A program made the translations under genes and the position numbers. Below are positions 24,723 to 46,500 of a stretch of 64,000 nucleotides of DNA, piece after piece. The notes beneath the pieces are model-generated. The model was not told where the DNA came from. It did not search any database and worked only from the letters and a program-made list of their open reading frames with translations. Within the stretch, counting starts at the first letter, position 1. The number at the start of each line of letters is the position of its first letter. The stretch is from Chloroflexota bacterium (GTDB lineage Bacteria > Chloroflexota > Anaerolineae > DUEN01), in contig JAADGJ010000061.1 in the NCBI GenBank assembly GCA_013152435.1, forward strand, positions 5,034 to 69,033. Reading direction: 5' to 3'.

Positions 24723-24765
24723 TCCCTCATCCTTCGTCTTCCGTCTCTCGCCCTTCGGCTGTCGT

Positions 24766-25776: not shown

Positions 25777-25798
25777 GAGAGCCTGTTCCCTCCTGTGG

Positions 25799-26578: not shown

Positions 26579-26588
26579 ATCGAATGCC

Positions 26589-28265: not shown

Positions 28266-29954
28266 ATGATGCGCATTGGTTTCCCGGTGAAGGTATTGGG
28301 GCAGGCCGGGCTGAAGTCCCACGATACCCGACGATGGCAGAACGCGCCCCATCTCAGCGTCAGCCTGGCGTACCTGCGGGATATCCTGAAGTATCTGGAG
28401 CGATCGGGCTTGCGCATGTACCGCATGGCCGCCGATCTGGCGCCCTATCTGGCCCATCCGGACCTGCCTGAGTTCGCCCATCAGATCGATGCGTGTGTGG
28501 AGGAATTGGCCTTCGTGGGGGAGATGGCCTCCGCGTTGGGAGTGCGGCTGTCCTTTCACCCGGGCGCCCACGTGGTGCTGAACGCCTCCGACGAAGCCGT
28601 GGCCCGGCGCTCCCTTCGCCATGTGACCGGCCTGGCCCGCATCCTGGATGCCATGGGGCAGGGCCCCGAGGCGGTCATCGTCGTGCATGTGGGGGGACGC
28701 TACGAAGATCGGGAGGCCGCCATAGCGCGCTGGGTGAGCCGATACCTCCGTCTGCCCTCGTTCGTGCGCGATCGCCTGGCGCTGGAGAACGACGACGCGC
28801 TCTTTTCGTTGTTGGACGTGTACCGCATCCATCAGCGCTGCGGCGTGCGCGTGGTGTTCGACTCCCTGCACCATCTGGTGCACAACCCGGATCGCATCCC
28901 TTTGGATGAGGCCCTGGAGATGGCATTGAGTACATGGCCGGATCATGTGCGGCCCAAAGTGCACTTCTCCTCGCCTCGGACGGAGGTGCGCCAGATCCGG
29001 ACCAAGGCAGGGGTTCGGCTGCAGCCGCCGTCCTGGACGCAGCATGCCGATTATGTGAACCCCTTTGAGTTCATCCACTTCCTGCAAGTGGCGGAGGGGA
29101 AGCGATCCTTCGATGTGATGCTGGAGGCCCGGGCGCGTGACCTGGCGGCGCTGCGCCTGCAGGCGGATCTGGCCCGTTACGCCCCGGAGTTGGCGGCTTC
29201 GCTCATGCCCTCCGCCGCCCGCGCAGCGGAGCCCGCCGAGCCGTATGCGCCGTGGCCGGAGGGGCAGGATGATGATCCCCGCGTGCTGGTGGCGGTGATG
29301 AACAACCTGCGTGATTTCGCCCTGGCCCGAGACGCGGGCTGGTATCGGATCCCGCTGGCGCGAGCCCCTCGTCTGGTGGCGGCGGACTACCTGGCGTTCT
29401 ATCAGACGCGGGTCTTCGGGGAGGAGGCCTGGGCGGTTCATTATTATGCGCCGACCCGGAGCTATCGCATTGTGACCCGCGCGGAGCTTCTGCCGGAGGA
29501 GATCGATCATCCGCGGGCGAAGGACCGTTATTACAAGCTGGAGATCGGCCCCCTGCAGCGTTTGCCGCATCCGATCCCCAGTCGGCGTCTTCGGCGGATC
29601 ACCTTTATCCCGACCACGCTATCACGCCTGTTGCACGCGGAGGAGATCAACGATCTGTGGATGGGCAATCCGATTCAGGAGCGACTGTGGGCGGAGCTGA
29701 AAGCGCAGGGGATCCTGGCCGAACGAGAGTATCCGTTAGAGGAGGGGAGGGCGTCCTATCGGGCGCCGCTCGCCGTGCCGTGTCGCACGGGGGGCGTGGT
29801 TGTAACGGCACGGGATATCCTGGGGGAGCCGTTGCCCGCGGGCTGGACCTGCCTGCGCGTCTCGTTGGATGACGATCTGGACAGGTGGCTCCGGAGCCTT
29901 CGGCGGGAGATCTCGGAGCGGGGAGGTGTGAGGGAAGCTGCGGATGACGGGTGA
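28266..29954 (+). CDS. uvsE: UV DNA damage endonuclease (UvsE/UVDE) fused to a ~250-aa C-terminal domain of unknown function
   Basis: The N-terminal ~310 aa match UVDE (MRIGFPVKVLG..SHDTRRWQNAPHLSVSLAYLRDILKYL, HPG, HVGG, ENDD). Start at ATGATG 28266 with an AGGAGGG RBS. The C-terminal region (WYRIPL...YLAFYQT...YRIVTRAELLPEE...YYKLEIGPL) is not recognised. Confidence 0.7.
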   Translation: MMRIGFPVKVLGQAGLKSHDTRRWQNAPHLSVSLAYLRDILKYLERSGLRMYRMAADLAPYLAHPDLPEFAHQIDACVEELAFVGEMASALGVRLSFHPGAHVVLNASDEAVARRSLRHVTGLARILDAMGQGPEAVIVVHVGGRYEDREAAIARWVSRYLRLPSFVRDRLALENDDALFSLLDVYRIHQRCGVRVVFDSLHHLVHNPDRIPLDEALEMALSTWPDHVRPKVHFSSPRTEVRQIRTKAGVRLQPPSWTQHADYVNPFEFIHFLQVAEGKRSFDVMLEARARDLAALRLQADLARYAPELAASLMPSAARAAEPAEPYAPWPEGQDDDPRVLVAVMNNLRDFALARDAGWYRIPLARAPRLVAADYLAFYQTRVFGEEAWAVHYYAPTRSYRIVTRAELLPEEIDHPRAKDRYYKLEIGPLQRLPHPIPSRRLRRITFIPTTLSRLLHAEEINDLWMGNPIQERLWAELKAQGILAEREYPLEEGRASYRAPLAVPCRTGGVVVTARDILGEPLPAGWTCLRVSLDDDLDRWLRSLRREISERGGVREAADDG

Positions 29955-30420: not shown

Positions 30421-30627
30421 GTCCGTGTTCCTCCACGAGGGCTGTGCGAGCACCTTTCCTTCAGTGCAAAGCGATGCCGCCATGCCGGCAGTCCTGCTTG
30501 CAGCGTACCATGATTGTCCCGGTTAGGCAATCCCCCTGCAGTATGCAGAGTAGGAGCCGTCGGAAGCGGATTCTGCCCGATCATTTGCCATCATGGCGGC
30601 TCTGCATTACAATAGTGCCGGTTTCGG

Positions 30628-30650
30628 AAATAGAAACGGGAATTCTATTT
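30628..30650. promoter_or_regulatory. perfect 8-bp inverted repeat AAATAGAA-N7-TTCTATTT, candidate IclR operator
   Basis: Lies in the divergent intergenic region upstream of the IclR gene and peptide locus 2. IclR regulators bind palindromes of this size. Confidence 0.3.
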
Positions 30651-30916
30651 TCGCAGCTCATTACCTCGCAGGCCGGGACATCCGTCCTGGCCACATGGTT
30701 GATTTCTCTCCCCAAAGGCGTGGCGAACAAGTGAATGAAGAGGATCCTGCGGTCCTGCAGGAGGCGTGCGGATAGGGTGCCCCTGGAGGGCGGGTGTTAT
30801 CCTCGCGTGTAAGGGGCTTCGGGGGTTGTAGGCGCTTGCCGGAGAGCCGGGCGGTGCTCCGGCGGGGCAACCTCCTGAGCCACCGGGTGAAAACGATCCT
30901 ATGGTGTGATAGGGCT

Positions 30917-31714
30917 ATGCCGGAATCGTCCGTTTCTCATCTTAAGACGTTAGATCGGGCTCTTCAAGTTCTCTCCCTCTTCAGCGTGGAACAGCCGGAG
31001 TGGGACTACACGTGCATGGCCGAGACCCTGGGCCTGCACAAGAGCATCGTCTATCGAATCCTCACCACGTTCGAGCGGTACGGATATGTGATGCGCCAGC
31101 CGGCCAGCGGACGATTCCGTCTTGGATTCCGCTTCGTGGAGTTGGGCAACCTGGTTTTGTCCAACATCGACCTGCGTACGATCGCCCATCCCTTCATGGA
31201 GGACCTGGTGCGCGCCGTGCGTGAGACGGCCTTCCTGACCGTCGTGAGCGGCCATGAGAGCGTATGCATCGATCGAGCGGAGAGCCCGCACCTGCTCCGG
31301 CTGACCATGGAGATCGGTGGACGATATCCCCTGTACGCCGGCGCGTCGAATCGGTTGCTCATGGCCTACCTGCCGGAGGAGGAGATCGAGGCGATCATCG
31401 CCAAGGGGCTGAAGGCTTACACGCCGAACACACTGGTCGATCCCGATGCGCTACGCGCTTCCCTGGCCGAGATCCGGCGTCAGGGATATGCGTTGAGCTC
31501 CTCGGAGTTGACGCCGGGGATGTCCGCCCTCTCGGTGCCGCTCAGGAACAGCAATCACGAGGTCGTGGCCGCGCTCAGCCTGGCCGGCCCCAGCGAGCGG
31601 TTCGGCGATGATCGCTGGCCGGAGATGCTGACCCGGCTCCAGGCCACCGCGGAGGCGATCTCACAGCGGCTGCTGGCCTGGCGGGTGCCGCAGTCCGGCC
31701 GGGCCGGGCTCTGA
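30917..31714 (+). CDS. IclR-family transcriptional regulator
   Basis: N-terminal wHTH (LDRALQVLSLF...TLGLHKSIVYRILTTFERYGYV) plus an IclR effector domain. Start reassigned to the ATG at 30917. Confidence 0.8.
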   Translation: MPESSVSHLKTLDRALQVLSLFSVEQPEWDYTCMAETLGLHKSIVYRILTTFERYGYVMRQPASGRFRLGFRFVELGNLVLSNIDLRTIAHPFMEDLVRAVRETAFLTVVSGHESVCIDRAESPHLLRLTMEIGGRYPLYAGASNRLLMAYLPEEEIEAIIAKGLKAYTPNTLVDPDALRASLAEIRRQGYALSSSELTPGMSALSVPLRNSNHEVVAALSLAGPSERFGDDRWPEMLTRLQATAEAISQRLLAWRVPQSGRAGL

Positions 31715-31867
31715 TCGAGGCGGGCGTCTCCCGTTGTGATGGCATTCAGAGATGGGTTTGTTTCGCCTTCCCCAACCAGTTCGCTGGAGAGGAGGTGGTG
31801 TCTTGCAGAGAGATCGCGTGGTCGTCGTATCCGCTTCATACAATCATCACCGAGAGGAGGTCTGAAC

Positions 31868-33541
31868 ATGAGAGACTCTCGTCAGTGGCTGGTCCTGCCC
31901 AGCTTGATCGTCGTGTTGGCGTTGTTGCTGGCAGCCTGTGCCCCCTCCACGCCAGCTCCGGCGGAGGCCCCCGCGGCTGAGGAGGCGACTCAGCCGGCCG
32001 AGGAGGCACCCGCGGCCGAGGAACCCCAGGAAGTGGTCTTCACGTATGTAGAGGGCCAGGTCGTCAGCACCATCGACCCGGCCAAGCACGTGGATGAGTC
32101 CTCCCTCCACGCGGTCATCAACCTGTACGATCCGCTCGTGCGCCCGAAGCTGGAGGAGAACTCCATGGAGCCAGGGCCGTGGGTGGCGGAGAGCTGGACC
32201 GTCTCCGATGATGGTCTGACCTACACCTTCAAGATCCGCCAGGGGATCAAGTTCCATGATGGCAGCGAGCTCACCGCGGAGGACGTGCAGTTCTCCATGG
32301 AGCGGATGCTGGCGCTGAAGAAGGGCTTCTCCTGGCTGTGGAACGGCGTCCTGGAGCCGGGCAGCATCGAGGTGCCGGACGACTACACCGTCGTCTTCCA
32401 TCTGAAGCAGCCTTACGCCCCCTTCCTGGCCACGCTGATCCAGCTCTTCATCGTCAACAAGGATCTGGTGATGGCCAACCTGCAGCCGGGCGACTTCGGC
32501 GAGATGCAGGATTATGGCCAGGCGTTCCTGGAGGAGAACGAGGCCGGGTCCGGCCCGTACGTGAAGGAGGCCTGGGAGCGCGGTTCGAAGTTCGTCTTCC
32601 GGCGATTCCCCGACTACTGGAAGGGATGGGAGCCCGGCCAGATCGATAAGGTGAACTACCTGATCGTCACGGAGGAGGCGACCAAGAAGACCCTGCTCCA
32701 GTCGGGTGAGGCCGACATGGTCGACCAGTGGATGACCGTGGAGAGCTACGAGGAGCTGGCCAAGAACCCGGACATCACCGTCCAGGTCGATCCCAGCGTG
32801 CAGCTCTTCCATCTGCCCATGAACACCCAGAAGGCGCCCACGGATAACATCCACCTGCGCAAGGCCATCGCCTACGCGTTCGACTACGAGACGGCCGTCA
32901 AGGAGATCATCCCCGGCTCCGTGCAGGCGGCAGGTCCGGTGCCCGTGCGGGCCTGGGGCCATGCGGATGACGTGTTCGTCTACTACCAGGACATGGAGGA
33001 GGCCAAGAAGCACTTCGAGGCGTCCGGGTTCAAGCCGGGCGAGGTGGAGCTGGATTACTGGTTCCCGGCTTCGGTGCCCATGGAGCGCAAGATCGGCCTC
33101 CTGCTGGCGTCCAACCTGCAGGAACTGGGCATCAAGCTCAACATCAACCCCGTGCAGTGGGCGAACATCACCGAGGCCGCGACCAGCGTGGAGACCTCGC
33201 CTCACCTGACCGGCATCTTCGACACGCTGAAGTACCCCCATCCGGATAGCCATACCTACGGTATGTATCACCCGTCGTGCTGGGGGAGCTATCGCTGTCT
33301 GTCCTGGTACGACAACCCGGAGGTGACGGCGCTTCTGGAGAAGGCGCGAGCCACGGTCGATCCTGAGGAGCAGATCGAGCTCTACAAGGAAGCGCAGCGC
33401 AAGATCGTCATGGACGCGCCCAGCATCTACATCGCCAACCCGGCCCATCGCATCGCCTATCGCAACCGCGTGAAGGGCTATACGTACGTGGGCCTGCTGG
33501 GCTGGGATCTGTCGTTCTACACGCTACGTATCGAGGACTGA
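31868..33541 (+). CDS. ABC transporter substrate-binding lipoprotein, family 5 (peptide)
   Basis: Start at the ATG at 31868 (RBS GAGAGGAGG). Signal/lipobox LALLLAAC followed by an Ala/Pro/Glu-rich linker. Paralogous to the 4322 SBP (shared WTVSDDGLTYTFKIRQGIKFHDG block). Confidence 0.85.
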   Translation: MRDSRQWLVLPSLIVVLALLLAACAPSTPAPAEAPAAEEATQPAEEAPAAEEPQEVVFTYVEGQVVSTIDPAKHVDESSLHAVINLYDPLVRPKLEENSMEPGPWVAESWTVSDDGLTYTFKIRQGIKFHDGSELTAEDVQFSMERMLALKKGFSWLWNGVLEPGSIEVPDDYTVVFHLKQPYAPFLATLIQLFIVNKDLVMANLQPGDFGEMQDYGQAFLEENEAGSGPYVKEAWERGSKFVFRRFPDYWKGWEPGQIDKVNYLIVTEEATKKTLLQSGEADMVDQWMTVESYEELAKNPDITVQVDPSVQLFHLPMNTQKAPTDNIHLRKAIAYAFDYETAVKEIIPGSVQAAGPVPVRAWGHADDVFVYYQDMEEAKKHFEASGFKPGEVELDYWFPASVPMERKIGLLLASNLQELGIKLNINPVQWANITEAATSVETSPHLTGIFDTLKYPHPDSHTYGMYHPSCWGSYRCLSWYDNPEVTALLEKARATVDPEEQIELYKEAQRKIVMDAPSIYIANPAHRIAYRNRVKGYTYVGLLGWDLSFYTLRIED

Positions 33542-33559
33542 CGTCTGAGATGTGGCGCT

Positions 33560-33590
33560 GGTGGGGGCAGGGCATCGCTTTGCCCCCACC
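33560..33590 (+). promoter_or_regulatory. GC-rich stem-loop between the SBP and permease genes (no U-tract; likely mRNA stabiliser/attenuator)
   Basis: GGTGGGGGCA-loop-TGCCCCCACC, a perfect 10-bp stem. Confidence 0.3.
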
Positions 33591-33610
33591 GGCCCGTTGG
33601 GGTATGGCCC

Positions 33611-34618
33611 ATGTACTACGAGTACCTGATTCGACGCTTGCTGCAGATGATCCCCGTCCTGTTGGGGATCTCGATCCTGATCTTCATCCTCTCTCGGGTG
33701 GTCCCCGGCGATCCAGTGCGTTTGGCGCTGGGGCCGGAGGCTACGCAGGAGCAGATCGAGGCGTATCGCAAAGAATTGGGGTTGGATCAGCCGATCCATA
33801 TCCAGTACCTGAACTACCTGCGTGGCCTGACCCACGGTCAGCTCGGCCGATCGTTGCGCACAAATCGTGATGTTATCAAGGATATTCGAGATTTCTTTCC
33901 GGCGACCTTCGAGCTGACCACGGTGGCCATGGTCTTCGCCGTGCTGGTGGGCATACCGCTGGGCATCACCTCCGCATTGCACAAGGACGCCTGGCAGGAT
34001 CAGGGGACCCGGGTGCTGGCGTTATCCGGTGTGGCGCTGCCCCGCTTCTGGTTGGGCATCCTGTTGCAGCTGGTGTTCGCCTATTGGCTGGGGATCTTGC
34101 CCACCATCGGGCGGGCCAGCCAACCGCCCCAACACATCACCGGGTTGTATCTGCTGGATAGCCTGTTGACCGGGGATGCCCGCGCGTTCTGGGACAGCCT
34201 CAGGCATATCGCGCTGCCCGCCTTCACCCTCTCGCTGGCCACGCTGGCCCAGATCATGCGGCTCACCCGCGCCTCGATGATCGAGCAGATGCGGATGGAG
34301 TATATCCAGGCCTCTCGCGCCTATGGACTGCCTGAGAACCTCATCGTTTATAAGTACATGTTGAAGAACGCGTTCACCTCCACGCTGACCATCATCGGGT
34401 TGACATATGGGTTCCTCCTGGGGAACGCCTTTCTGGTGGAGTTCGTGTTCGCGTGGCCGGGCATGGCCCGGTACGGCGCGCAGGCGGTCATTTACAAGGA
34501 TTTCAACGCGGTGGTGGCGGTGACGACCGTGGTCGGTATCGCTTATCTCCTCGTGAATTTCGTGGTGGATCTGCTCTACGGGTTCCTGGATCCACGCATC
34601 CGTTTGGGAGCGCGCTAG
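33611..34618 (+). CDS. peptide ABC transporter permease (DppB-like)
   Basis: Multi-TM BPD-transporter permease, paralogous to 6635..7699. Confidence 0.85.
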   Translation: MYYEYLIRRLLQMIPVLLGISILIFILSRVVPGDPVRLALGPEATQEQIEAYRKELGLDQPIHIQYLNYLRGLTHGQLGRSLRTNRDVIKDIRDFFPATFELTTVAMVFAVLVGIPLGITSALHKDAWQDQGTRVLALSGVALPRFWLGILLQLVFAYWLGILPTIGRASQPPQHITGLYLLDSLLTGDARAFWDSLRHIALPAFTLSLATLAQIMRLTRASMIEQMRMEYIQASRAYGLPENLIVYKYMLKNAFTSTLTIIGLTYGFLLGNAFLVEFVFAWPGMARYGAQAVIYKDFNAVVAVTTVVGIAYLLVNFVVDLLYGFLDPRIRLGAR

Positions 34619-35551
34619 ATGAGCACAGATCAAGGTGGCACGAACGCTTTGGCGGCCTCGGTGGGCGATCCCATGAGGTTGCAGGCGGGACGCCGGGAGG
34701 AGTGGCGGCGCGCCTGGTATCGGATGCGCCGGAGCGCGGTCTCCCTGGTCGGCCTGGGGATCGTGTTGACTGTGATCCTGGCCGCCATCTTCGCCCCGTA
34801 CATCACCCCGTACCCCGAGGATGCGGGGAACGCGGTTCACTTCGCCAACGCTCATGAGCCGCCCAGCATGAAGCACCTCTTCGGCACCGATGAGATCGGC
34901 CGTGACGTGCTGACGCGCGTGGTCTTCGGCGCCCGGATCTCCCTGGTGTTGGGGATCGTGGTGCTCTCCATCGCCATCGGGATCGGCGTCCCGCTGGGGC
35001 TGATCGCCGGGTATTGGGGCGGCCGGGTGAGCACGATCATCATGCGAACGACCGACATCTTCCTGGCCATCCCGCCTCTGGTGCTGGCATTGGCCGTGAG
35101 CGCGGCGCTGACGCCCAACCTGACCACTTCCATGGTCGCCATCGCCTTTGGCTGGTGGCCGTGGTTCACCCGGCTGGTGTACGGCGAGGTGCTGTCGGTC
35201 AAGGAGGAGCTGTTCGTCGAGGCCGCGTACTCTCTGGGCGCCGGCCGTTTGCGCATCGCGTTCAAGGAGATCCTCCCGAACGTGCTCTCCCCGATCCTGG
35301 TCAAAGGGACCCTGGATATGGGATTCGTGATCCTGATCGGCGCCAGCCTCTCGTTCCTCGGGTTGGGGGCCCAGCCGCCCTCACCGGCCTGGGGGACGTC
35401 CATCGCCGAGGGGCGTGTGTATCTGCCCGGAGCCTGGTGGGCGGCCACCTTCCCCGGACTGGCCATCTTCGTCACCGTCCTCGGCTTCAACCTGCTGGGG
35501 GACGGGCTGCGGGACATCTTCGATGTGGAAGTCGAGCGCTGGGGGGTGTGA
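34619..35551 (+). CDS. peptide ABC transporter permease (DppC-like)
   Basis: Multi-TM permease, paralogous to 7721..8764. Its stop overlaps the next start (ATGA). Confidence 0.85.
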   Translation: MSTDQGGTNALAASVGDPMRLQAGRREEWRRAWYRMRRSAVSLVGLGIVLTVILAAIFAPYITPYPEDAGNAVHFANAHEPPSMKHLFGTDEIGRDVLTRVVFGARISLVLGIVVLSIAIGIGVPLGLIAGYWGGRVSTIIMRTTDIFLAIPPLVLALAVSAALTPNLTTSMVAIAFGWWPWFTRLVYGEVLSVKEELFVEAAYSLGAGRLRIAFKEILPNVLSPILVKGTLDMGFVILIGASLSFLGLGAQPPSPAWGTSIAEGRVYLPGAWWAATFPGLAIFVTVLGFNLLGDGLRDIFDVEVERWGV

Positions 35552-36582
35552 TGGCCGAGTTCCTGTTGGACGTGCGCGATCTTCACGTCGAGTTCGGCGG
35601 ATACGAGGGCCTGGCTCGCGTCATCGATGGGGTCAGCCTGTATGTGCGCCGGGGGGAGACGGTTGGCCTGGTGGGGGAGACGGGATGCGGCAAGTCGGTG
35701 ACGGCCCGGGCGGTGATGGGGCTGTTGCCCGGCACCGCTCGCATCACGCAGGGGGAGATCCTCTTCAAGGGGCAGAACCTGCTGGACCTGGACCCGCAGG
35801 CGATGCAGACCCAGGTGCGCGGCCGCGGCATTTCCATGATCTTCCAGGACCCCATGAGCTCGTTGAACCCGGTGTTCACCATCGGCGAGCAGTTGAGCGA
35901 TGTGATCCGCTGGCAGGGCGTCTCTCGGGTGGGGTTGCTCCACTACCTGCGCCGTTCGCTGGACCGCGAGGAGCGCAGACGGATCGAGGATCGGGTGGTG
36001 GAGATGCTGGACAAGGTGCGTATCCCCACGCCGCGGGAGATGTTGAACCGGTATCCGGTGCAGCTATCGGGCGGGATGCGGCAGCGGGTGTTGATCGCCC
36101 TGGCCCTGATCAATCGCCCGGAGCTGGTCATCGCCGATGAGCCTGGGACCGCGTTAGACGTCTCCATCCAGGATCAGATCCTGGCCCTGATCCGGGATCT
36201 GGTCGCCAGCGAGGGGATCTCCGTCCTCTACATCACCCACGATCTGGGCGTGGCCCGGTCTCTGTGCGATCGGATCTACGTGATGTACGCGGGCCAGGTG
36301 GCGGAGACGGCGCCGGCCGAATCCCTGTTTCGCGAGCAGTATCACCCCTACACGCGGGGCCTGCTCGATTCGATCCCCCGGCTGACCGGCCGATTGGGGG
36401 AGGGGATCGAGGGGCGCATCCCGGATTATCGCTCGCCGTTGCGGGGGTGCCGCTTCTACGACCGTTGCCCGCGCCGCATGCCTCACTGCCAGGACGTGCG
36501 GCCGGAGCCCATCGAGATGGCGCCGGAGCATTTCGTGGCCTGCCACCTGTATTCCGATGACTCAGCAGGGGGTGCGTCGTGA
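35551..36582 (+). CDS. peptide ABC transporter ATP-binding protein (DppD-like)
   Basis: Start reassigned to the ATG at 35551 (MAEFLLDVRDLHVEF...). Walker A GETGCGKS, signature LSGGMRQR. Confidence 0.85.
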   Translation: MAEFLLDVRDLHVEFGGYEGLARVIDGVSLYVRRGETVGLVGETGCGKSVTARAVMGLLPGTARITQGEILFKGQNLLDLDPQAMQTQVRGRGISMIFQDPMSSLNPVFTIGEQLSDVIRWQGVSRVGLLHYLRRSLDREERRRIEDRVVEMLDKVRIPTPREMLNRYPVQLSGGMRQRVLIALALINRPELVIADEPGTALDVSIQDQILALIRDLVASEGISVLYITHDLGVARSLCDRIYVMYAGQVAETAPAESLFREQYHPYTRGLLDSIPRLTGRLGEGIEGRIPDYRSPLRGCRFYDRCPRRMPHCQDVRPEPIEMAPEHFVACHLYSDDSAGGAS

Positions 36583-37589
36583 GCCAGCCTGAGAACGGAT
36601 ATCTGCTGGCGGCGCGAGGGCTGACCAAACACTTTCCGATCTATCGCGGCATCGTCCTGCAGCGGCAGGTCGGGGCCGTCCGGGCCGTGGACCAGGTGGA
36701 CCTCACCATCATGCCCGGCGAGACGCTGGCGTTGGTGGGGGAATCCGGGTCGGGCAAGACCACCATCGGCAAGCTGTTGATCCGGGTCCTGCGTCCTACG
36801 GCCGGGGAGATCTGGTTCGGCGGACAGGATATCGCCCATCTGGACGACGCGGCGTTGCGGCCCGTCCGTCGTCGGATGCAGATGGTGTATCAGGACCCTA
36901 CCTCCTCCTTGAACCCGCGTCGCCGTGTGAAGGACATCATTGAGGATCCGTTGGTGATCCATAAGATCGGCGACGCGGCCCAGCGGGCCAGCCGGGTGGA
37001 GGAGCTGCTTCACCTGGTGGAGCTGCCGGTGGAGTTCGCCTATCGCTATCCCAACGCGCTCAGCGGCGGCCAGAAACAGCGGGTGGGGATCGCCCGGGCG
37101 CTTGCCCTCAATCCGGCCTTCATCGTCCTGGATGAGCCCACATCGGCTCTGGACGTGTCCGTGCAGGCCAAGATCATCGCCCTGCTCAAGCGGTTGCAGG
37201 CGGAGTTAGGGCTGACGTACCTCTTCATCACCCACGATTTGCGGGTGGTGCGGAACCTGGCCACCCGGGTGGGGGTGATGTACCTGGGGCGCATCGTGGA
37301 ACAGGCGCCCACGGAGATCCTGTACGCCAACCCGGCGCACCCCTACACGCGAGCGCTGCTGTCCGCCATCCCGGCGCTGGACGAGGAGGAGCTGGCCGCG
37401 ATCCCCCAGAAGGTCCCTTTGCAGGGCGAGATCCCCAGCGCTGCCCATGTGCCTCCCGGATGCGCCTTTCACCCGCGCTGTCCGGCCCGCTTCGCCCCGT
37501 GCGATCGCGTGGTCCCGCGGGAGAGCGTGGTGGCAGAGGGACATCTCGTGCGCTGCCATCTGTACGACCCCGAGTATGCGCCCGCGTAG
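36579..37589 (+). CDS. peptide ABC transporter ATP-binding protein (DppF-like)
   Basis: Walker A GESGSGKTT, signature LSGGQKQR. GTG start overlapping the previous stop (GTGA). Confidence 0.85.
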   Translation: MSQPENGYLLAARGLTKHFPIYRGIVLQRQVGAVRAVDQVDLTIMPGETLALVGESGSGKTTIGKLLIRVLRPTAGEIWFGGQDIAHLDDAALRPVRRRMQMVYQDPTSSLNPRRRVKDIIEDPLVIHKIGDAAQRASRVEELLHLVELPVEFAYRYPNALSGGQKQRVGIARALALNPAFIVLDEPTSALDVSVQAKIIALLKRLQAELGLTYLFITHDLRVVRNLATRVGVMYLGRIVEQAPTEILYANPAHPYTRALLSAIPALDEEELAAIPQKVPLQGEIPSAAHVPPGCAFHPRCPARFAPCDRVVPRESVVAEGHLVRCHLYDPEYAPA

Positions 37590-37778
37590 CAGCGGGCTGG
37601 GCCCGGGCAGGCCAGAGGCTGTAGCGGAGGCGAGCTGACGAGTCGTCCCCCCGGGCCTTCCCAGGGAAGCGGTCAAAGGCGCCCGTGACGGTCTTTGCCA
37701 CACGTCGCGCTCAGGTGTGGCGCTGCCACCGGCGGAGCGCCTCTACTTAATGTGCTCTGTTTCGGAGGTTGAGCTGTC

Positions 37779-38834
37779 ATGACGTTGATCGACGCCGATG
37801 TCATTCAGGATGCCGTGGTCCGGATGTTGCAGGTGAATATGGGGCTGCGAGCGGGGGAGCGGCTGCTGGTCGTCAGCGATTATCCCAATGAGATGCAGTG
37901 GTGTTCGGCGGATCCGTCGCTGTTGGAAAGCATCTGCCGACGGACGCTGCTGGGGCGGGCTGTGGCGGATATCGCCCGGGATCGCTTTCCCGACTCCTCC
38001 GTGACCTTCCTGGCCTTTCCCTCCACCGGCCAGAGCGGTAAGGAGCCGCCGCCGGATGTGGCGGCGGCCATGCGCCAGGCGCAAGTCGTCATCGCGATCA
38101 CGTCTTTCTCCCTCTCCCACACGGATGCCCGGGAAGGGGCGTGTCGGGCGGGCGCTCGCGTGGCCTCCATGCCGCGCTTCTTGCCGGAGATGTTCGAGCC
38201 GGGCGGGCCGATGGATGTGGATTACATGGCCGTGGAGCGGCGCACCCAGGCCATCGCCCGGGCCATCACCGGGGCGGAGGAGGTACGCGTCACGTCCCCG
38301 GACGGGACGGATATCCGCTTCAGCGTGGCCGACCGGCCGGGACAGGTGGATGCGGGCATTTACGATCGCCCTGGCGCGTGGGGGAATCTCCCGGCCGGGG
38401 AGGCGTACTGCACGCCGGTGGAGGGCTCCGGGCGAGGGCGGATCGTGGTCGTCCCGGGGTGGCACGCTCGCCTGGAGGAGCTCATGACGCTACATATCGA
38501 GAACGGCGAGCTGGTGGCCATCGACGGCGGCGGCCGCGTGGGAGAGGACCTGCGCGATCTGCTGCGCCCGGGCGATCCGTCGTCGCCCTATCGGGAGCGC
38601 CGGAACCTGGGCGAGTTCGGCGTTGGCACAAACCCGAACGCCCGGCGTGTGGATATCACTTTAGAGGCGGAGAAGATCATGGGGACGGTGCATCTGGCGC
38701 TGGGGGATAACTCGCACATGGGCGGACGGGTGAGCGCGGACTTCCACCAGGATTTCGTGGTCCCCAGGGCCAGCTTCTGGCTGGACGGCCGTCCGGTGAT
38801 GGAGAATGGTCAGCTGTTGATCGAGGAGGCGTAA
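37779..38834 (+). CDS. M29-like (aminopeptidase T/AmpS/NicX-fold) family protein, paralogue 1
   Basis: N-terminal pattern ...GLRAGERLLVVSD... and its length (351 aa) fit the aminopeptidase-T-like fold. Assignment is by motif recall, not by search. Confidence 0.45.
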   Translation: MTLIDADVIQDAVVRMLQVNMGLRAGERLLVVSDYPNEMQWCSADPSLLESICRRTLLGRAVADIARDRFPDSSVTFLAFPSTGQSGKEPPPDVAAAMRQAQVVIAITSFSLSHTDAREGACRAGARVASMPRFLPEMFEPGGPMDVDYMAVERRTQAIARAITGAEEVRVTSPDGTDIRFSVADRPGQVDAGIYDRPGAWGNLPAGEAYCTPVEGSGRGRIVVVPGWHARLEELMTLHIENGELVAIDGGGRVGEDLRDLLRPGDPSSPYRERRNLGEFGVGTNPNARRVDITLEAEKIMGTVHLALGDNSHMGGRVSADFHQDFVVPRASFWLDGRPVMENGQLLIEEA

Positions 38835-38839
38835 CGCGT

Positions 38840-39904
38840 ATGGAACTCGCGATTGGCACGGAACCCACCCCGACGTACCTGTCGTTTGAGCTAGCTCGCG
38901 GCGCTCGTCGGCTGATCGAGGACGTGATGCTGGTGAAGCCGGGCGAGAACGTGGTGATCACCGTGGACACCTCCAGTGATTGGCGGGTAGCCGAGGCCAC
39001 GGCCAGGGCCGCGTTCGCGGCGGGCGCCAGCCCGGTCGTCGTCTGGTACGAGGGGCGCCCGGACGCGGTCATGGAGCCCCCGCCTCCGGTGGCGGGAGCC
39101 ATCGCCCGCGCCGATGTGTGGATCGAGTACGCCGTAGCGTACATCCTGCACACGGAGGCGTACAAGGCCGCGTTGGCGAACGGATGTCGCTACATCTGCC
39201 TGACCGGCATGGATGTGGACATGATGGTCCGCACCATCGCCAATGTGGATTATCCCAAGATGATCGAGCTCAGCCACGTGTTGGGCGCGGCCATCGCCCA
39301 GGCGGACGAGATCCGGGTCACCAGCCCGGCGGGCACGGATCTGGTGGCGCGCATGGGCGGACGCAAGATCCGCTACTCCGGCAAGCTGGCGGATACGCCC
39401 GGCGAGCCCATCATGCTGGGCGGACAGATCTCCTGGTGCCCGCTGGAGGAGACCATCAACGGCACGCTGGTGTTCGATGGTGCCCTCTGGCCTCCCAAGG
39501 AGATCGGCCTGCTTCGTCAGCCCGTGCGCCTGACGGTGGAACAGGGGCGTGTGACCCGGGTGGAGGGGGGACCCGAGGCGAAGGTGCTGGAGCGCTGGTT
39601 CGCCTCCTTTGACAATCCGAACATCTATCGCATCGCGCACTACTCGCTGGGGTTCAACCCCGGCGTGACCCGGCCCACGGGGCGCATCGTCGAGGATGAG
39701 CGGGTGTTCGGCTGCATCGAGTTTGGCATCGGCAGCCAGGGGAAGCAGATCGGCGGCCCGGGCTGGGATGCCGGGGGACACACCGATGGCATCGTGCTCA
39801 ACCCGTCCATCTACCTGGACGGCGAGCCGCTGGAGGAGGAAGGGGTGTACGTCCGACCGGACGTCGTGGCCGCCTGTCGCGCGTTGGGCGTGCCAGGGTA
39901 CTGA
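38840..39904 (+). CDS. M29-like (aminopeptidase T/AmpS/NicX-fold) family protein, paralogue 2
   Basis: LVKPGENVVITVD...AAFAAGASPVVVWYEGRPD resembles the M29 N-terminal region. Tandem paralogue of the previous gene. Confidence 0.45.
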   Translation: MELAIGTEPTPTYLSFELARGARRLIEDVMLVKPGENVVITVDTSSDWRVAEATARAAFAAGASPVVVWYEGRPDAVMEPPPPVAGAIARADVWIEYAVAYILHTEAYKAALANGCRYICLTGMDVDMMVRTIANVDYPKMIELSHVLGAAIAQADEIRVTSPAGTDLVARMGGRKIRYSGKLADTPGEPIMLGGQISWCPLEETINGTLVFDGALWPPKEIGLLRQPVRLTVEQGRVTRVEGGPEAKVLERWFASFDNPNIYRIAHYSLGFNPGVTRPTGRIVEDERVFGCIEFGIGSQGKQIGGPGWDAGGHTDGIVLNPSIYLDGEPLEEEGVYVRPDVVAACRALGVPGY

Positions 39905-39913
39905 GTTTGGGGA

Positions 39914-41032
39914 ATGGTGATTATGGGGACCGCAAACAGACTGTACGAGCAGCCACTCACCATGGAGGTCGCCCGCATGGCCGCTTTCGGCGGCGCGGTG
40001 TTGGGCGGCGGTGGCGGCGGTGACATCGAGAATGGGCTTCAGCTGGCGCAACTGGCGCTGGAGATGGGACAGCCGCGCGTCCTGCCGGCGGATTCGCTGG
40101 CGAACGACGTGCTCGTCGTGACCGTCTCCGCGGTGGGGGCCCCGGCCGCGTCGGAGCAGTTCATCAAGCCGATCGATTACGTGGACGCCTTGAACCTCTT
40201 GCAGGAGCACATGGACAAGCCGGTGGGCGGGCTCATTACGAATGAAAACGGCGGCATGGCCACCGTCAACGGCTGGCTGCAATCGGCGCTTTCAGGCCTG
40301 CCCGTGGTGGATTGCCCGTGCAACGGCCGCGCACATCCCACCGGGCTGATGGGGGCGATGGGGCTGGACGAGCTTCCGAACTATGTCTCTCGCCAGGCGG
40401 CGGTGGGTGGTAACCCTCATGCCGGTCGTCGGGTGCGGCTGTATGTGGAGGGCGATCTACGTCGCGCGGCGCGATTGGTGCGCCAGGCCGCGGTGGAGGC
40501 GGGCGGCCTGGTAGGGGTGGCCCGCAATCCGGTCACCATGGCGTATGCGCGGGAGCATGGCGCGCCGGGAGCGCTGGCCCGGGCAGTGGAGGTCGGCCAG
40601 GCCCTGTTGGCGGCGTCCGATCCGGAGGCCGCGGCGCAGGCGGTGGCGGAGACGTTGGGCGGGCGGATCGTCGCTCGCGCCCGGGTTGCCCGGGTGGACC
40701 TGGTCACCCGAGGGGGGTTCGATGTCGGGACCGTGTACCTGGAGGACGATCTGCAGCTGACCTTCTGGAACGAGTACATGACCCTGGACCGCCGGGGGGA
40801 GCGATTGGGGACCTTCCCCGATCTCATCGCCACGCTGGCGGCTGACGAATCCCGGCCGTTGTCCTCGGCGGAGGTGAAGGAGGGGCAGGAGATCTTCGTG
40901 TTGCACGTCCCGCGCTCCCGTCTGCGGTTGGGGTCGGGGATGAGGCGGCCCAACCTGCTGCGGGCGGCGGAGGAGGCGGTCGGCCGACCGCTGGTCTCGT
41001 TCGTGTTCCCCGAGGAGAACTCTGAGCGCTGA
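39914..41032 (+). CDS. DUF917-like protein (glycine-rich GGGGGG loop)
   Basis: AFGGAVLGGGGGGD motif and size (~370 aa) typical of DUF917. Recalled, not searched. Confidence 0.4.
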   Translation: MVIMGTANRLYEQPLTMEVARMAAFGGAVLGGGGGGDIENGLQLAQLALEMGQPRVLPADSLANDVLVVTVSAVGAPAASEQFIKPIDYVDALNLLQEHMDKPVGGLITNENGGMATVNGWLQSALSGLPVVDCPCNGRAHPTGLMGAMGLDELPNYVSRQAAVGGNPHAGRRVRLYVEGDLRRAARLVRQAAVEAGGLVGVARNPVTMAYAREHGAPGALARAVEVGQALLAASDPEAAAQAVAETLGGRIVARARVARVDLVTRGGFDVGTVYLEDDLQLTFWNEYMTLDRRGERLGTFPDLIATLAADESRPLSSAEVKEGQEIFVLHVPRSRLRLGSGMRRPNLLRAAEEAVGRPLVSFVFPEENSER

Positions 41033-41156
41033 TTGGATCAGAAGCACCTGATCGGGAATCCCAGGACGAACCGGCTTCCATTTCCAGTAGGGACGCCGGA
41101 GGATTTCCTGGAATGGTATCGGAGGCAGTTCGCGGAATCAGGTTGAGGGGGGATCT

Positions 41157-42098
41157 GTGACGCTCAAGCAGGCTATAGAAGCGTATGAGCTGTTGGACAG
41201 CGCGCTTGTGGACGGCGATCATGTGGCGGCCCTATTGCATAACCGAGGGCTGACGGTGGAGACGTTCACCGTGGAGGGCGATAGGGGGCGCACGGACTTC
41301 GTTCGGGCCGTCCTGTACGGGGAGCGGGGAAAGCGGACCGGCGGAGATGCCCCCACATTGGGCATCATCGGCCGGTTGGGTGGCATCGGCGCCCGGCCGA
41401 CGGCTCTGGGGCTGGTGTCGGACGCGGATGGGGCGATCACGGCCATCACCTGCGCGCTGAAGCTGGCCGATCTGTGCCGCGCGGGCGATCGCTTGCCGGG
41501 CGACGTGGTCATTGCCACCCACATCTGCCCGCACGCTCCGACGGAGCCGCACGAGCCGGTGCCGTTCATGGGCTCACCGGTGGATATCGCCACCATGAAC
41601 CGGCACGAGGTCGCCGATGAGATGGACGCCATCCTGTGCATTGACACCACCCGGGGGAATTGGGTCATCAATCAGCGCGGCTTCGCTATCTCCCCCACGG
41701 TGATGCAGGGATGGATCCTGAAGGTGAGCGCCGATCTGCTGCGCATCATGTCCTACGTCACCGGGCGACCTCCGGTGGTCTTCCCGCTGAGCATGCAGGA
41801 CATCACCCCCTATGGCAACGGTGTGGATCATCTGAACAGCATCCTGCAGCCGGCGACGGCGACGGACGCTCCGGTGGTGGGCGTGGCGCTGACGGCGGAG
41901 ATACCGGTACCGGGGTGTGCGACGGGTGCCAGCCAGATCGTTGATATCGAGGCCGCCGCCCGGTTCTGCGTGGAGGTGGCCAAGGCGTTCACGCGCGGGG
42001 AGTGCCAGTTCTACGATCCGGACGAGTTCCGACGCCTGGTCGCCCTTTACGGCGAGATGCGCCATCTGCAGACCATGGGGCGCGAGGATGCGGCGTGA
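41157..42098 (+). CDS. DUF1177-like protein
   Basis: ~313 aa. Its position between DUF917-like and AroM-like genes matches a recurrent DUF917/DUF1177/AroM neighbourhood. GTG start with a GAGGGGGG RBS. Confidence 0.35.
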   Translation: MTLKQAIEAYELLDSALVDGDHVAALLHNRGLTVETFTVEGDRGRTDFVRAVLYGERGKRTGGDAPTLGIIGRLGGIGARPTALGLVSDADGAITAITCALKLADLCRAGDRLPGDVVIATHICPHAPTEPHEPVPFMGSPVDIATMNRHEVADEMDAILCIDTTRGNWVINQRGFAISPTVMQGWILKVSADLLRIMSYVTGRPPVVFPLSMQDITPYGNGVDHLNSILQPATATDAPVVGVALTAEIPVPGCATGASQIVDIEAAARFCVEVAKAFTRGECQFYDPDEFRRLVALYGEMRHLQTMGREDAA

Positions 42099-42769
42099 TG
42101 GCAAGGCCTTCTGTGTTGGGGCTCCTCACCATCGGGCAATCGCCCCGGGATGACGTGTTGCCGCAGGTCCTCCCGCATCTGCCGTCGGATGTGCGTATCA
42201 TCCAGGCGGGCGCGCTGGACGATCTGACGGACGAGGAGATCGCCGCTCTGGCGCCCGGCCCGGGCGATTACGTCCTCACGTCGCGGCTGCGGGACGGCCG
42301 CGCGGTGACGATGGCGCGGGAGAGGATCCTGCCGCTGATGCAGGCGCGCATCGAGGCGTTGGAGGCCCAGGGCGCCAATCCGATCTTCATCCTTTGCACG
42401 GGTGAGTTCCCGCCGTTTCGCTCTCGAGCGCTGCTGGTGGAGCCGGAGAAGATGCTGCCGGCTGTCGTGCGCGGCCTGACGGTGCGTCGGCTGGGCGTGA
42501 TCGCACCGCTGCCCGAGCAGCTTGATGCCATGCAGGAGAAGTGGCGTCCGGTATGCGCCGATCTGGCGGTGGCGGCCGGATCGCCCTATGGCCCTAAGGA
42601 ACGGGTCGTCGAGGCCGCGCTGTCCCTGCGAGGGCGGACGGTGGATCTCGTCGTGATGGATTGCATCGGCTATACGGAGGCGCATCGGGCCCTGGTGCGG
42701 GAGCAGGTCGACCGGCCGGTGATGCTGGCGTCGGCCGCGGCCGCACGCGTGGTGGGGGCGCTGCTTTGA
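42098..42769 (+). CDS. AroM-family protein
   Basis: Start reassigned to the ATG at 42098, overlapping the upstream stop (TGATG). LGLLTIGQSPRDDVLP and DCIGYT motifs resemble AroM. Confidence 0.45.
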   Translation: MARPSVLGLLTIGQSPRDDVLPQVLPHLPSDVRIIQAGALDDLTDEEIAALAPGPGDYVLTSRLRDGRAVTMARERILPLMQARIEALEAQGANPIFILCTGEFPPFRSRALLVEPEKMLPAVVRGLTVRRLGVIAPLPEQLDAMQEKWRPVCADLAVAAGSPYGPKERVVEAALSLRGRTVDLVVMDCIGYTEAHRALVREQVDRPVMLASAAAARVVGALL

Positions 42770-43574: not shown

Positions 43575-46500
43575 GTGCCGAATATTCGCATTCAGGCCTT
43601 GGGCGCTTTCAGTATGTGGCGAGACAGTATCGCGGTTCCCGATGAAGCCTGGCCTACATCAAAGAGCAAGCAGCTCTTCAAAATCTTACTCACCGAGCGG
43701 GGTCATCTTGTTTCGGCAGACCGGCTCATTGAGTATCTCTGGCCCGATCTGCCGCTTAAAAAAGCCCGGAACAATCTATGGGTAACGGTAAGTCAAGCGC
43801 GGCGTGTGTTGCAGCCTGATTTGCCGCCACGGACTCGCTCTGCTTATATCATCAAGCGCGATGAAGGTTATCTGTTTGATCCCCACAGCGACCACTGGCT
43901 GGACGTGGACGCTTTCAGCGATTACCTTCAGACGGCACAACAGGCAGCAGACCCGACCATCCGTATTGAAGCCCTGGAAAAAGCGCGGCACCTTTACCAG
44001 GGCGATTTCCTTGAGGATGACCCCTACGCAGAATGGGCGCTGGCCCCCCGCGATCGGTTACGAGAACAGTATCTAAACCTGCTGGCCGATTTGGCCGAAA
44101 CCTATGCGCAGCAAGAGCAATACCGCCAGGCTATTGGATTGTGTCGCCAAAGTCTCGCCCTCGAAAACAGCCGCGAATCCACCTATCGCCAATTGATGCT
44201 ATACCTCTATTGCACTGGTGAACAACCCGCCGCCCTGCAACTGTACGATGAGGTATGCCAGGTAATGCGGGAGGAAATCGGTGTTGAACCGGCCCCGGAA
44301 ACGAGCAACCTCTTTCACCAGATTCAACGGCGTCAGGTAGTCGGGGTGGACGAAAAGAAGGTCTACCCGCGCTCGGCATCGACGCACATCAGCACTCATT
44401 CGTTGAGGCAAACACCATTTGTAGGCCGCGCCCGGGAATACGGCCAATTGACCGCCATGGTCAACCAGGCCAACCAGGGCAACGGCTGTGTTGTCTTTGT
44501 CGGTGGTGAGCCGGGCATCGGTAAAAGCCGCCTGATGCGGGAGACGGCTATGTTCGCCGGCAAAGAGGGCTTTACCACGCTCTTTGTCCATAGTTACCAG
44601 GTAGAACAGGCCATGCTTTACCAACCCCTGGTAGACCTGGTCCGACATATCAACGAGACATGGCCGGAGCAAATTGCCGGCCTCCCCACCGTATGGCTCA
44701 GGGAAATCGCTGCACTGGTACCGGAAATTGCCGGCACCGCCACAGGTCAGGCCATTGTCCCCGCCAAAACAGACGAAAACCAGCAGGGACGGCTCTTTCA
44801 AGCCATCGTGCATTTGTTGTCGGCCATCGCCGGAGAAAATGGCCTTATGCTCAACGTGGATGACATCCACTGGGCCGATACAGCGACGCTCCAATTTCTC
44901 CACTATCTGGCCCGGCGTGTGTCTGGCGAACGGATATTGCTGGCCTGTACCTACCGCCACGAGGAAGTGACGGCCGATGAACACCTGGCCGCGCTCATTC
45001 ATCATCTCCAACGCGAGCCGCACGTGACCTTCATCTCCTTAAACCGCCTGTCAAGCACAGACATTGATGAACTGCTGGGCGCTCTGGAAACCGTGCCCAC
45101 TACCTGGAGTGAATGGCTCTATAGCGAAACAAGTGGCAACCCATTCTTTCTTGTTTCTATCCTTCAATTGTTGCAGGAACAGGGGGATTTGGGGAAAACC
45201 GCGCCGGCTGACATTCTCTCGACAGAGATCACCTTACCGGAGGCCATTCAGGAGTCGGTGCGGGGACGCTTGCGACAGGCAACGCAGTTGGAGCAACAGG
45301 TGCTGGGCTGGATGGCTGTTTTTGGTCGCAATTTCAGTTTTGCCACGCTGCAAGCCATCACCGGCCAGAGCCAGTTGGATCTGCTGAAGGTGGTAGAGAG
45401 CCTGCTGCAGCGGCAATTGTGGCAGGAAACGGCAGATGGTTACGACTTTAGCCACCACAAAATTCGCGAAGTGGTCTACCACGACCTGAGCGGGGCGCGT
45501 CGAGTTGTGTACCATGGCCAAATTGCAGAGATGCTGGCGCAATCGGCTGAGGACCGCCCGGCACTCTTGGCCCATCATTTTGAACGGGCCGGGAACACGG
45601 GACAGGCCCTGGCCTATTGGTTGCGGGCGGGCGAGAAGGCCCTCGACGCCTACGCCCTGCAACAGGCTGTTCGTCACTATGAGCGGGCCTTGGCCTTAGC
45701 GGAAGGGGCAGCCGACGAGATGGATGCCTACGAAGGGCTGGGCCGGGCCTTCATGTTGCTGGATGAGGTGGCTCAGGCTACGACCGTGTTGCAGCAAGGC
45801 ATCCAACTGGCGGAAGCGCAAGAAGATGACAGCCGTTATGCTCGCCTGTTGTTTGCGCGGGCCCAGCTTGCCAACCGGCAGCACAAAGTTACCACCAACT
45901 ACGTGCGCGCCGCGTTGTCTGCCGCCGAGCGAGCGGGCGATCTGGCTCTGGTCGCTCAAAATCTGCTGCTGCTTACTGAAATCTATGAAGGCCAGGGGGT
46001 TCTTGACAATGCCCTGGCCACCATTACCCGGGCCCAAACCATCAGCGACGAGTTGGGCGATGTCCACCTGGCAGCCCGTATCCGCAATGAGATTGGCTTT
46101 GTCCACACCCAGCGTGGCGAGTTCGCCGAGGCCATCGATATCGTAAAGCAGGCTCTAGAACCGTTAGCCCAGCTCGAAGACCGGATGTCACTGGCCTATT
46201 CCTGGAATCTGTTGGGACGCGCCTACGGCGGGTATGGTGACTACCAGCAAGCCATCGAGTCCTTTCAGCGCAGCCGGGTGGAAGCAGGAGCGGTCGGCGA
46301 CGGCTACCTCATTGTCCAGACACCCAATATGTTGGGCTGGCTGTACCGTGAATTGTGTGCCTTTGAACAGGCCCTGCAATTTGACCAGGAGGGGGTTGCC
46401 GTGGCCCAGGAGTGGGCTAAGGAGCCGCCGGAAGTTAGCGCCCGGCTCAATGTCTGTCTGGATGTGCTACACCTGGGCGAACCGGACCGGGCCTTGGGGA

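Follow-up and report, generated by a model that had tools for sequence, protein, structure and literature searches.

A conserved enzyme module around DUF1177, coupled to a peptide-type importer in a Chloroflexota genome, with a possible role in the salvage of peptidase-resistant peptide derivatives

Which compound is handled by a gene cluster that places a peptide-type importer beside two M29/NicX-fold proteins and members of the DUF917, DUF1177 and AroM families? The cluster occupies positions 30917-42769 of a 64,000-nucleotide stretch of DNA from a Chloroflexota bacterium (assembly GCA_013152435.1, contig JAADGJ010000061.1), referred to here as the window. It comprises eleven open reading frames (ORFs), all on the + strand: an IclR regulator, a substrate-binding protein (SBP), two permeases, two ATPases, two M29/NicX-fold paralogues (A-type and B-type), a DUF917 protein, a DUF1177 protein and an AroM protein. 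An earlier reading of the sequence, the original prediction, had described these genes as a coherent but functionally undescribed system for the use of a peptide or modified amino acid. The enzymes of the cluster form a real and widespread module that is probably catabolic. At roughly even odds (a probability of about 0.5), the cluster is an operon for the catabolic salvage of a small peptide derivative of dipeptide size, one that resists peptidases as it is cyclised and/or contains D-residues. The substrate class given in the original prediction is also our best reading; the identity of the substrate, the catabolic direction, the order of steps and the assignment of reactions to proteins are what we infer.

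Loci encoding DUF1177 were collected by a pattern scan with one genome per GTDB species. At least 548 loci were found and the best 80 were fetched; these are the top matches and are skewed toward kin of the window. They span more than ten phyla, including Chloroflexota, Bacillota, Synergistota, Thermococci, Bathyarchaeia, deltaproteobacteria, Spirochaetota, Acetothermia, Aminicenantes, Actinomycetota and others. Neighbouring genes were detected by tblastn with the window proteins and by independent clustering of all ORFs in the loci, and both approaches agree. Partner counts are restricted to loci with adequate flanking DNA, and 35 loci with at least 6 kb on each side are termed fully flanked. 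Window proteins were assigned to families by Pfam and NCBIfam hidden Markov model (HMM) searches, and folds by matches against the PDB or, for DUF1177, from a structural model. For DUF1177, DUF917 and AroM the PDB searches required profiles, as single-sequence queries found nothing for the first two and only noise for AroM.

The enzyme genes keep company across bacteria and archaea. AroM starts no more than 1.7 kb downstream of DUF1177 in 45 of 72 assessable loci, and DUF917 ends no more than 400 nt upstream of it in 25 of 67. Among the fully flanked loci, AroM is found in 23, DUF917 in 16, an M29-like protein in 15 and a PF01177 racemase in 12. Across the 80 loci the recurrent core reads (PF01177 racemase)-DUF917-DUF1177-AroM-M29-like. 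DUF1177 followed by AroM occurs in at least nine phylum-level groups, with an estimated gap of -20 to +50 nt in most of the loci that bear AroM. Sampling from the AroM side, with homologues picked only for long contigs, DUF1177 was present in four of four clusters. The genes form a coherent unit, as had been predicted, and in the 80 loci this unit is conserved across phyla alongside importers and peptidase-fold enzymes. The further claim that this association is fixed has to be softened to frequent, as 7 of the 35 fully flanked loci contain none of the partners.

Individual arrays can resemble the window closely. In a related metagenome-assembled genome (locus L087) all eleven genes recur in unchanged order. 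A metagenome contig (L086) carries the Opp ATP-binding cassette (ABC) genes, NicX, NicX, PF01177, DUF917, DUF1177 and AroM, which is the window order with an extra racemase. The cultured archaeon Pyrococcus sp. NA2 contains PF01177, DUF917, DUF1177, AroM, NicX/M29, OPT, NicX, AsnC and an Opp-type ABC system in one array. Peptide or amino-acid fermenters and thermophiles predominate among the hosts, with Synergistota, Thermococci, Tissierellia and Acidaminobacter as examples.

What changes from genome to genome is the route of uptake and its control. In the fully flanked loci an Opp-type ABC system is found in 10, a protein with ten transmembrane segments identified as an OPT oligopeptide transporter in 10 and an NCS1 permease in 2, and any of these transporters lies co-directionally within 7 kb in 21. 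The regulators vary as well: IclR is found in 3 of 80 loci, PucR in 14 loci and AsnC in Thermococcales. What is conserved is the enzyme core; transporters (Opp/Dpp ABC, OPT or NCS1) and regulators can replace one another. IclR does not belong to the conserved unit. The mutually substituting transporters are mainly peptide importers, which supports a peptide-derived substrate. Further support comes from other genes near the module. A Pfam census of 133 further co-directional neighbours was dominated by Amidohydro_1/3 (7), M20 (5), M24 (4), LarA (3), Hydantoinase_B (2) and CN_hydrolase (2), and ORF clustering added M20 in 9 loci and the LD-carboxypeptidase family S66 in 4; such frequent amide-hydrolase and racemase neighbours fit a salvage pathway.

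Some loci show further features. A conserved protein of about 282 amino acids, without a Pfam or NCBIfam family, adjoins the module or splits DUF1177 from AroM in 17 loci, mainly of Synergistota and Bacillota (e.g. L048:6155-7000 and L028:10954-11802); it lies between the two genes in about ten loci, mostly Synergistota, and is not present in the window. In two cultured organisms, Alicyclobacillus suci (L055) and Streptomyces sanglieri (L076), DUF1177 is found with an NCS1 permease; the former also has two DUF917 copies and Hydantoinase_B genes, with no AroM or M29-like gene. This variant context favours ureide-type substrates. Lastly, a Bacillota-type contig carries the BREX genes BrxA, BrxB and BrxC and a methyltransferase about 1.5 kb downstream of the module, beyond one unannotated ORF (L085:10232-15718), which is probably a coincidence.

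All five importer proteins of the cluster carry Dpp/Opp (PepT family) Pfam domains: the family-5 substrate-binding lipoprotein (31868..33541, 557 aa), the permeases of DppB/OppB type (33611..34618; BPD_transp_1 and BPD_transp_1_N) and DppC/OppC type (34619..35551; BPD_transp_1 and OppC_N), and the ATPases of DppD/OppD type (35551..36582, starting MAEFLLDV) and DppF/OppF type (36579..37589), both with ABC_tran and oligo_HPY. The SBP matches SBP_bac_5 at 2.7e-84, and its N-terminus, MRDSRQWLVLPSLIVVLALLLAAC, combines a signal peptide with an LAAC lipobox, in line with an importer that works in a monoderm cell. Its closest solved relatives are the dipeptide-binding proteins HbpA and DppA (E 4e-46 to 5e-44) rather than OppA, which weakly favours a dipeptide-sized ligand. 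The protein falls far below the cut-offs of all NCBIfam equivalogs, and the known ligands of family-5 SBPs extend to nickel, opines, haem and sugars.

Import, stereo-inversion and stepwise hydrolysis make up the simplest pathway that uses all recurring parts. The lipoprotein SBP and the Dpp-type ABC transporter would bring the compound in. AroM, a homologue of racemases that use two thiols and no pyridoxal phosphate (PLP), would invert a C-alpha centre; many other genomes have a PF01177 racemase in addition. The DUF917 protein would open or convert a ring of the cyclic-amide or ureide type; in its characterised relatives the point of attack is C2 of 5-substituted thiohydantoins. DUF1177 and the two M29/NicX-fold metalloenzymes would then cleave the resulting linear amide or amides to free amino acids, and IclR would repress the operon from a palindrome beside the promoter until the substrate or an intermediate is present.

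How well does each protein suit the step proposed for it? AroM (42098..42769) is well placed in its family, as had been predicted, with 252.1 bits against PF07302 (cut-off 23.8, E 5.2e-75) and 225.8 bits against the NCBIfam equivalog of E. coli AroM, PRK10481 (cut-off 198). Across twenty orthologues a TIGQSPR motif and two cysteines, C100 (LCTGEFP) and C189 (DCIGY), are invariant. The AroM profile weakly matches the hydantoin racemase 2eq5 (E 0.0026) exactly at the second Cys motif, and it also matches allantoin and glutamate racemases; several AroM homologues carry overlapping PF01177 matches. This sequence pattern reads most naturally as that of a two-thiol racemase or epimerase, and the same view of AroM has been reached from predicted structures (PMC11055893).

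The DUF917 protein (39914..41032) matches S-Me-THD_N (PF06032, 2.9e-22) and S-Me-THD_C (PF20906, 1e-26), the current Pfam names for DUF917, and has the predicted GGGGGG loop, in the form LGGGGGGD, with G31-G36 invariant in the family alignment. It aligns with the entire NCBIfam models of the thiohydantoin desulfurases NF058529 (287 bits, cut-off 440) and NF058532 (264 bits, cut-off 450). By sequence the protein is homologous to hydantoin-ring-acting enzymes, short of the level of the desulfurase equivalogs. Its fold is distinct and is not structurally similar to any known hydantoinase. The original prediction held that none of the DUF917, DUF1177 and AroM families has an established biochemical function, and for DUF917 these two characterised groups correct it.

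DUF1177 (41157..42098) is the most conserved protein of the cluster. Its predicted label is borne out by a match to PF06675 that spans profile positions 2-272 of 272 and, at 437.8 bits (1.4e-131), clears the gathering score. In an alignment of 20 diverse members the mean column identity reaches 83%, and at least 7992 homologues exist (of 8000 scored candidates, 7992 pass E 1e-5). The window protein is 73% identical to that of Pyrococcus sp. NA2. Comparing the window with Thermococcales (L014-L016 and P0077), DUF1177 is 69-73% identical, and DUF917, AroM and the M29-like proteins are 36-46% identical. The structural model predicts the catalytic-domain fold of dinuclear-zinc exopeptidases and amidohydrolases (MH clan: M20, M28 and M42), and its structural neighbours include allantoate amidohydrolase and carbamoylase-family amidases. 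Aligned by secondary structure, the model suggests D89/D91, H122/C124, D163 and E248/C254 as the ligand-site positions. No domain fusions of DUF1177, DUF917 and AroM were found among the best 120 homologues of each.

The two M29/NicX-fold paralogues (A-type, 37779..38834; B-type, 38840..39904) are 25% identical to each other and belong to two subfamilies, each recurring across loci. Their prediction as tandem aminopeptidase-T/NicX-fold paralogues is upheld by matches to the NicX structure 7cn3 (A-type E 6.5e-12, B-type E 6.8e-13) and not by the Pfam M29 family (PF02073), which gives no match for the A-type and 19.1 bits for the B-type against a cut-off of 27. Precomputed annotations of orthologues give PF02073 and/or PF26233 NicX. 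The A-type subfamily profile matches NicX (5e-16), PepS (4e-11), AmpS (1e-6) and AmpT (3e-6). Its alignment has invariant E208, E279, H305, H323 and D325, four of which align with PepS E253, E319, H381 and D383. Measured against the M29 metal ligands Glu253, Glu319, His348, His381 and Asp383 (PepS/AmpS numbering, MEROPS), the A-type retains all five, and it looks like an active dinuclear enzyme of aminopeptidase type. In the B-type, Gln, His and Glu occupy the first three M29 ligand positions, where M29 has Glu/Glu/His, and a His/His/Asp set aligns to the NicX Fe(II) triad H265, H318 and D320; the A-type has Glu at the position of NicX His265. The HMM searches as a whole returned the predicted families rather than unrelated ones, and the transporter counts above agree with the predicted co-conservation.

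Several observations weigh against the proposed pathway. DUF1177 can stand without any partner, as in the seven fully flanked loci mentioned above and at L082, and some DUF1177 loci have NCS1 permeases and hydantoinase B, pointing to non-peptide ureides. DppA-type SBPs normally require free peptide termini, which are absent from cyclic substrates. The characterised relatives of DUF917 are desulfurases rather than ring-opening hydrolases, and the window protein is below their cut-offs. For DUF1177, hhalign against the neighbouring M20 proteins finds no homology (probability 1.2%), the canonical His/Asp/Glu/(Asp or Glu)/His ligands are not obviously kept, and the lowest-confidence segments of the AlphaFold2 (AF2) model are the invariant loops 77-88, 130-141, 214-223 and 249-257. 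These modelled loops may become ordered only when a metal or cofactor is bound or an oligomer is formed.

A more specific form of the salvage pathway can be considered. Diketopiperazines resist peptidases, and the substrate could be 2,5-diketopiperazines or other heat- or age-damaged, cyclised and racemised peptides, with the module as their missing catabolic route. We regard this version as tentative and on balance unlikely. Under it, DUF917 would be the first identified ring-opening enzyme for diketopiperazines (or for peptide cyclic imides or hydantoins), and DUF1177 would represent a novel type of amidohydrolase that contains Cys and His on a zinc-exopeptidase fold. Two racemase-like proteins would be present because there are two stereocentres to correct, and the M29-like enzymes would finish hydrolysis to amino acids. 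Such a substrate would explain the peptide-type importers, the link to cyclodipeptide-oxidase homologues and the enrichment in hyperthermophiles and peptide fermenters.

The alternative that survives best is an analogue of hydantoin or ureide utilisation, although it too is rather unlikely. Here a 5-substituted hydantoin or a purine-, histidine- or creatinine-derived ureide would be imported instead of a peptide, AroM and PF01177 would racemise it, DUF917 would replace the hydantoinase and DUF1177 would replace the M20 N-carbamoyl-amino-acid amidohydrolase. The action of DUF917 relatives on thiohydantoins, racemase partners of the hydantoin/allantoin racemase type and the amidase-like neighbours of the DUF1177 model are all in keeping with this, as are PucR in 14 loci and the NCS1 permeases and Hydantoinase_B genes in several. 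The same reading has been suggested for clusters associated with cyclodipeptide oxidases (PMC11055893). However, Opp/Dpp and OPT transporters dominate and NCS1 occurs in only 2 of 35 loci; an M29-type enzyme with a complete peptidase metal site, such as the A-type, has no role in a hydantoinase-carbamoylase route; DUF917 is structurally unlike any known hydantoinase; and two racemase-like proteins exceed the need of a substrate with one stereocentre.

Ordinary dipeptide nutrition is less probable still. It would combine a general Dpp importer with generic aminopeptidases and leave DUF917, DUF1177 and AroM as unrelated passengers. Dpp/Opp loci are common, the SBP resembles DppA, and DUF1177 is sometimes alone. 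Another Opp/Dpp-type ABC locus is in fact found in the window at 2099-10505, with two ATPases, an SBP (4322-6340), two permeases and a second SBP (8805-10505), and no module enzyme genes are attached to it. On the other side, bacteria and archaea alike retain the order DUF917-DUF1177-AroM, with start and stop codons that overlap, which is hard to explain without functional coupling, and the enzymes stay grouped where the transporter is of another type.

Biosynthesis or modification of a peptide-derived secondary metabolite or signal, e.g. a modified cyclodipeptide, is very unlikely. DUF917, AroM, PF01177, Opp/OPT and peptidases are enriched near cyclodipeptide-oxidase homologues, and the authors of that study deem biosynthesis possible (PMC11055893). 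But SBP-dependent ABC systems are importers, no synthetase (cyclodipeptide synthase, CDPS; nonribosomal peptide synthetase, NRPS; or ATP-grasp) or oxidase is found in the window cluster or among common neighbours, and catabolic operons typically have regulators like IclR, PucR and AsnC and many hydrolase genes, as here. Aerobic cleavage of an N-heterocyclic ring, in which the NicX-like proteins, one or both, would serve as Fe(II) dioxygenases for a hydroxypyridine-like compound, is barely credible and was rejected as the main explanation: the best solved homologue of both paralogues is a 2,5-dihydroxypyridine 5,6-dioxygenase and the B-type keeps the His/His/Asp triad, but orthologues lie in the same module in strict anaerobes (Pyrococcus, Thermococci and Synergistota), so that an O2-dependent role is unlikely for the whole B-type family with its Pyrococcus and Thermococci members, the A-type has the peptidase ligand set and not that of NicX, and Pfam annotation finds no other nic-pathway genes in the cluster.

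How might the salvage operon be controlled? The IclR protein (30917..31714, 265 aa) has both an N-terminal helix-turn-helix domain (HTH_IclR, 2.2e-10) and a C-terminal effector domain (IclR_C, 7e-47), and it is below every NCBIfam equivalog cut-off; its L087 orthologue has 263 aa. A consensus scan places a sigma-70-like promoter, TTGCCA-17-TACAAT (10 of 12 matches), at 30585..30613 on the + strand, for the IclR gene and possibly for the operon. The palindrome upstream of IclR in the original prediction exists at 30625..30653, 264-292 nt from the ATG, and begins 12 nt past the promoter. It has the form CGGAAATAGAA-N7-TTCTATTTTCG, with 11-nt arms and 1 mismatch, and is a candidate IclR operator. 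An inverted repeat of equal quality arises in 3.3% of shuffles of that intergenic region. When the IclR upstream regions of the window and L087 are aligned, the sole conserved island consists of the -35, the -10 and the palindrome, and the flanking intergenic DNA is unalignable. The motif occurs once in the window and once in L087, with 0 chance matches expected, and in L087 it lies 25 nt from the IclR start codon. From this sequence conservation the promoter and operator are likely real, and we infer that IclR binds at the palindrome.

The leader of about 265 nt between promoter/operator and IclR ATG in the window (30654-30916) is absent from L087; it has a GC-rich hairpin at 30838-30863 without an Rfam match. 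The gap between DUF917 and DUF1177 contains, at 41060-41120, TTCCATTTCC and ATTTCCTGGAAT, which loosely resemble the palindrome half-site and may be a weak internal site or chance. An Rfam search of the long leader and the intergenic gaps found no riboswitch or other RNA. A terminator scan found 5 sites, with 5.2 expected in shuffled sequence, and none directly 3' of AroM.

The arrangement of the genes is compact. The ORF list and Pfam place all eleven co-oriented genes where they had been predicted, and the TGATG overlap claimed for DUF1177 and AroM is real, with the same overlap at the permease 2/ATPase 1 junction. The permeases are joined with zero gap (TAG then ATG), the ATPases overlap by GTGA, the A-type and B-type genes are 5 nt apart and B-type and DUF917 are 9 nt apart. 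Tight packing, predicted as gaps of 0-120 nt, is true of most junctions and not of those between ATPase 2 and the A-type gene (189 nt), IclR and SBP (153 nt) and DUF917 and DUF1177 (124 nt). The window belongs to a high-GC, metagenome-assembled genome. The GC content of the cluster is 0.62-0.68 and equals that of the flanks, so there is no compositional sign of recent transfer, and recent horizontal transfer of the cluster into this genome was rejected on that ground.

The flanking genes are unrelated to the cluster. Upstream are a UvdE-like gene, a 588-aa ORF at 28188-29954 with a UvdE UV-endonuclease domain at residues 61-266 and a long C-terminal extension, and a divergent lipoprotein-like ORF. 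Immediately 3' is a 1142-aa regulator with BTAD, AAA_16 and TPR domains (43575-47003; SARP/MalT-like). Sugar-metabolism-like genes are found on the - strand at 22962-27839: a zinc alcohol dehydrogenase, a xylose-isomerase-like TIM barrel, a class II aldolase and a RhaA-like isomerase.

The value of the module lies partly in placing DUF1177, with its thousands of homologues, in a defined and widespread context with a predicted fold. This protein evolves much more slowly than its operon partners, a striking constraint that merits structural work. The module is a good target for enzyme discovery, and there would be practical value in new racemases and stereoselective amidases of thermophilic origin. 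Microbial degradation of diketopiperazines has been described only at strain level (PMC3852281); if the substrate is cyclic dipeptides or racemised peptides, genes would be found for an activity known only at the level of the organism, and the use of damaged peptides by peptide fermenters and hyperthermophiles would be shown.

In the literature searched, DUF1177 appears only in one unrelated paper and PF06675 was not found. Nor was a functional study found there of DUF1177, thiohydantoin desulfurase, diketopiperazine hydrolases or OsrF (the UniRef name of some DUF917 homologues). DUF917 and AroM are discussed together only in a study of cyclodipeptide oxidases (CDOs) of the non-CDPS type (PMC11055893), which finds PF01177, DUF917, AroM, Opp/Dpp, OPT and peptidases enriched at these oxidases and leaves their function open. 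The system is undescribed, as had been predicted, beyond this partial match. The module has been partly noticed before, from another anchor gene. DUF1177 is not mentioned in that paper or its supplements, and the membership of DUF1177, its fold, the two M29-like subfamilies and the multi-phylum reach appear undescribed there. The non-CDPS CDO clusters share the enrichment of PF01177, DUF917, AroM, Opp/Dpp ABC, OPT and peptidases and include Thermococcus. In contrast, the window cluster and the frequent DUF1177 neighbours contain neither a CDO nor a nitroreductase-like gene.

Other known systems resemble single parts of the cluster. NicX and the M29 aminopeptidases (PepS, AmpS and AmpT) share their fold and metal-site positions with the two paralogues, the A-type with the M29 set and the B-type with the NicX set; however, both paralogues are below the Pfam M29 cut-off, their context is unrelated to nicotinate degradation and their orthologues occur in strict anaerobes. 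The ergothioneine catabolic cluster, with the thiohydantoin desulfurases NF058529 and NF058532, shares the Pfam family S-Me-THD with DUF917 over a full-length alignment, but the window protein is below the cut-offs and no ergothionase, thiourocanate hydratase or other ert-type gene is nearby. The dpp operon of Bacillus subtilis encodes the D-aminopeptidase DppA (family M55) and the dipeptide ABC transporter DppBCDE. It is alike in that one transcript joins a dipeptide ABC importer to a dedicated metallo-aminopeptidase, which acts on peptides left uncleaved by ordinary peptidases, whereas M55 DppA is unrelated to the window proteins and racemase-like, DUF917 and DUF1177 parts are lacking.

The proposed pathway runs formally parallel to that of the hyu operons for hydantoin utilisation (NCS1 permease, racemase, hydantoinase and M20 carbamoylase), with different families as its parts. 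Their enzyme families (hydantoinase, HyuA/B and M20 carbamoylase) do not occur in the window cluster and are found in only a minority of other DUF1177 loci. The window importer is of peptide type, M29-like peptidases are added, the DUF917 fold is unrelated and DUF1177 has no detectable sequence homology to M20. Some DUF1177 loci do hold PF01177, NCS1 and Hydantoinase_B, and both systems would follow one logic: an importer is joined by a racemase of the Asp/Glu/hydantoin superfamily that needs no PLP, by an enzyme that acts on the ring and by an amidohydrolase with the dinuclear-zinc exopeptidase fold, for which AroM, DUF917 and DUF1177 are the respective candidates here. The module resembles a non-orthologous counterpart of the hydantoinase-carbamoylase-racemase systems that are used industrially for optically pure amino acids.

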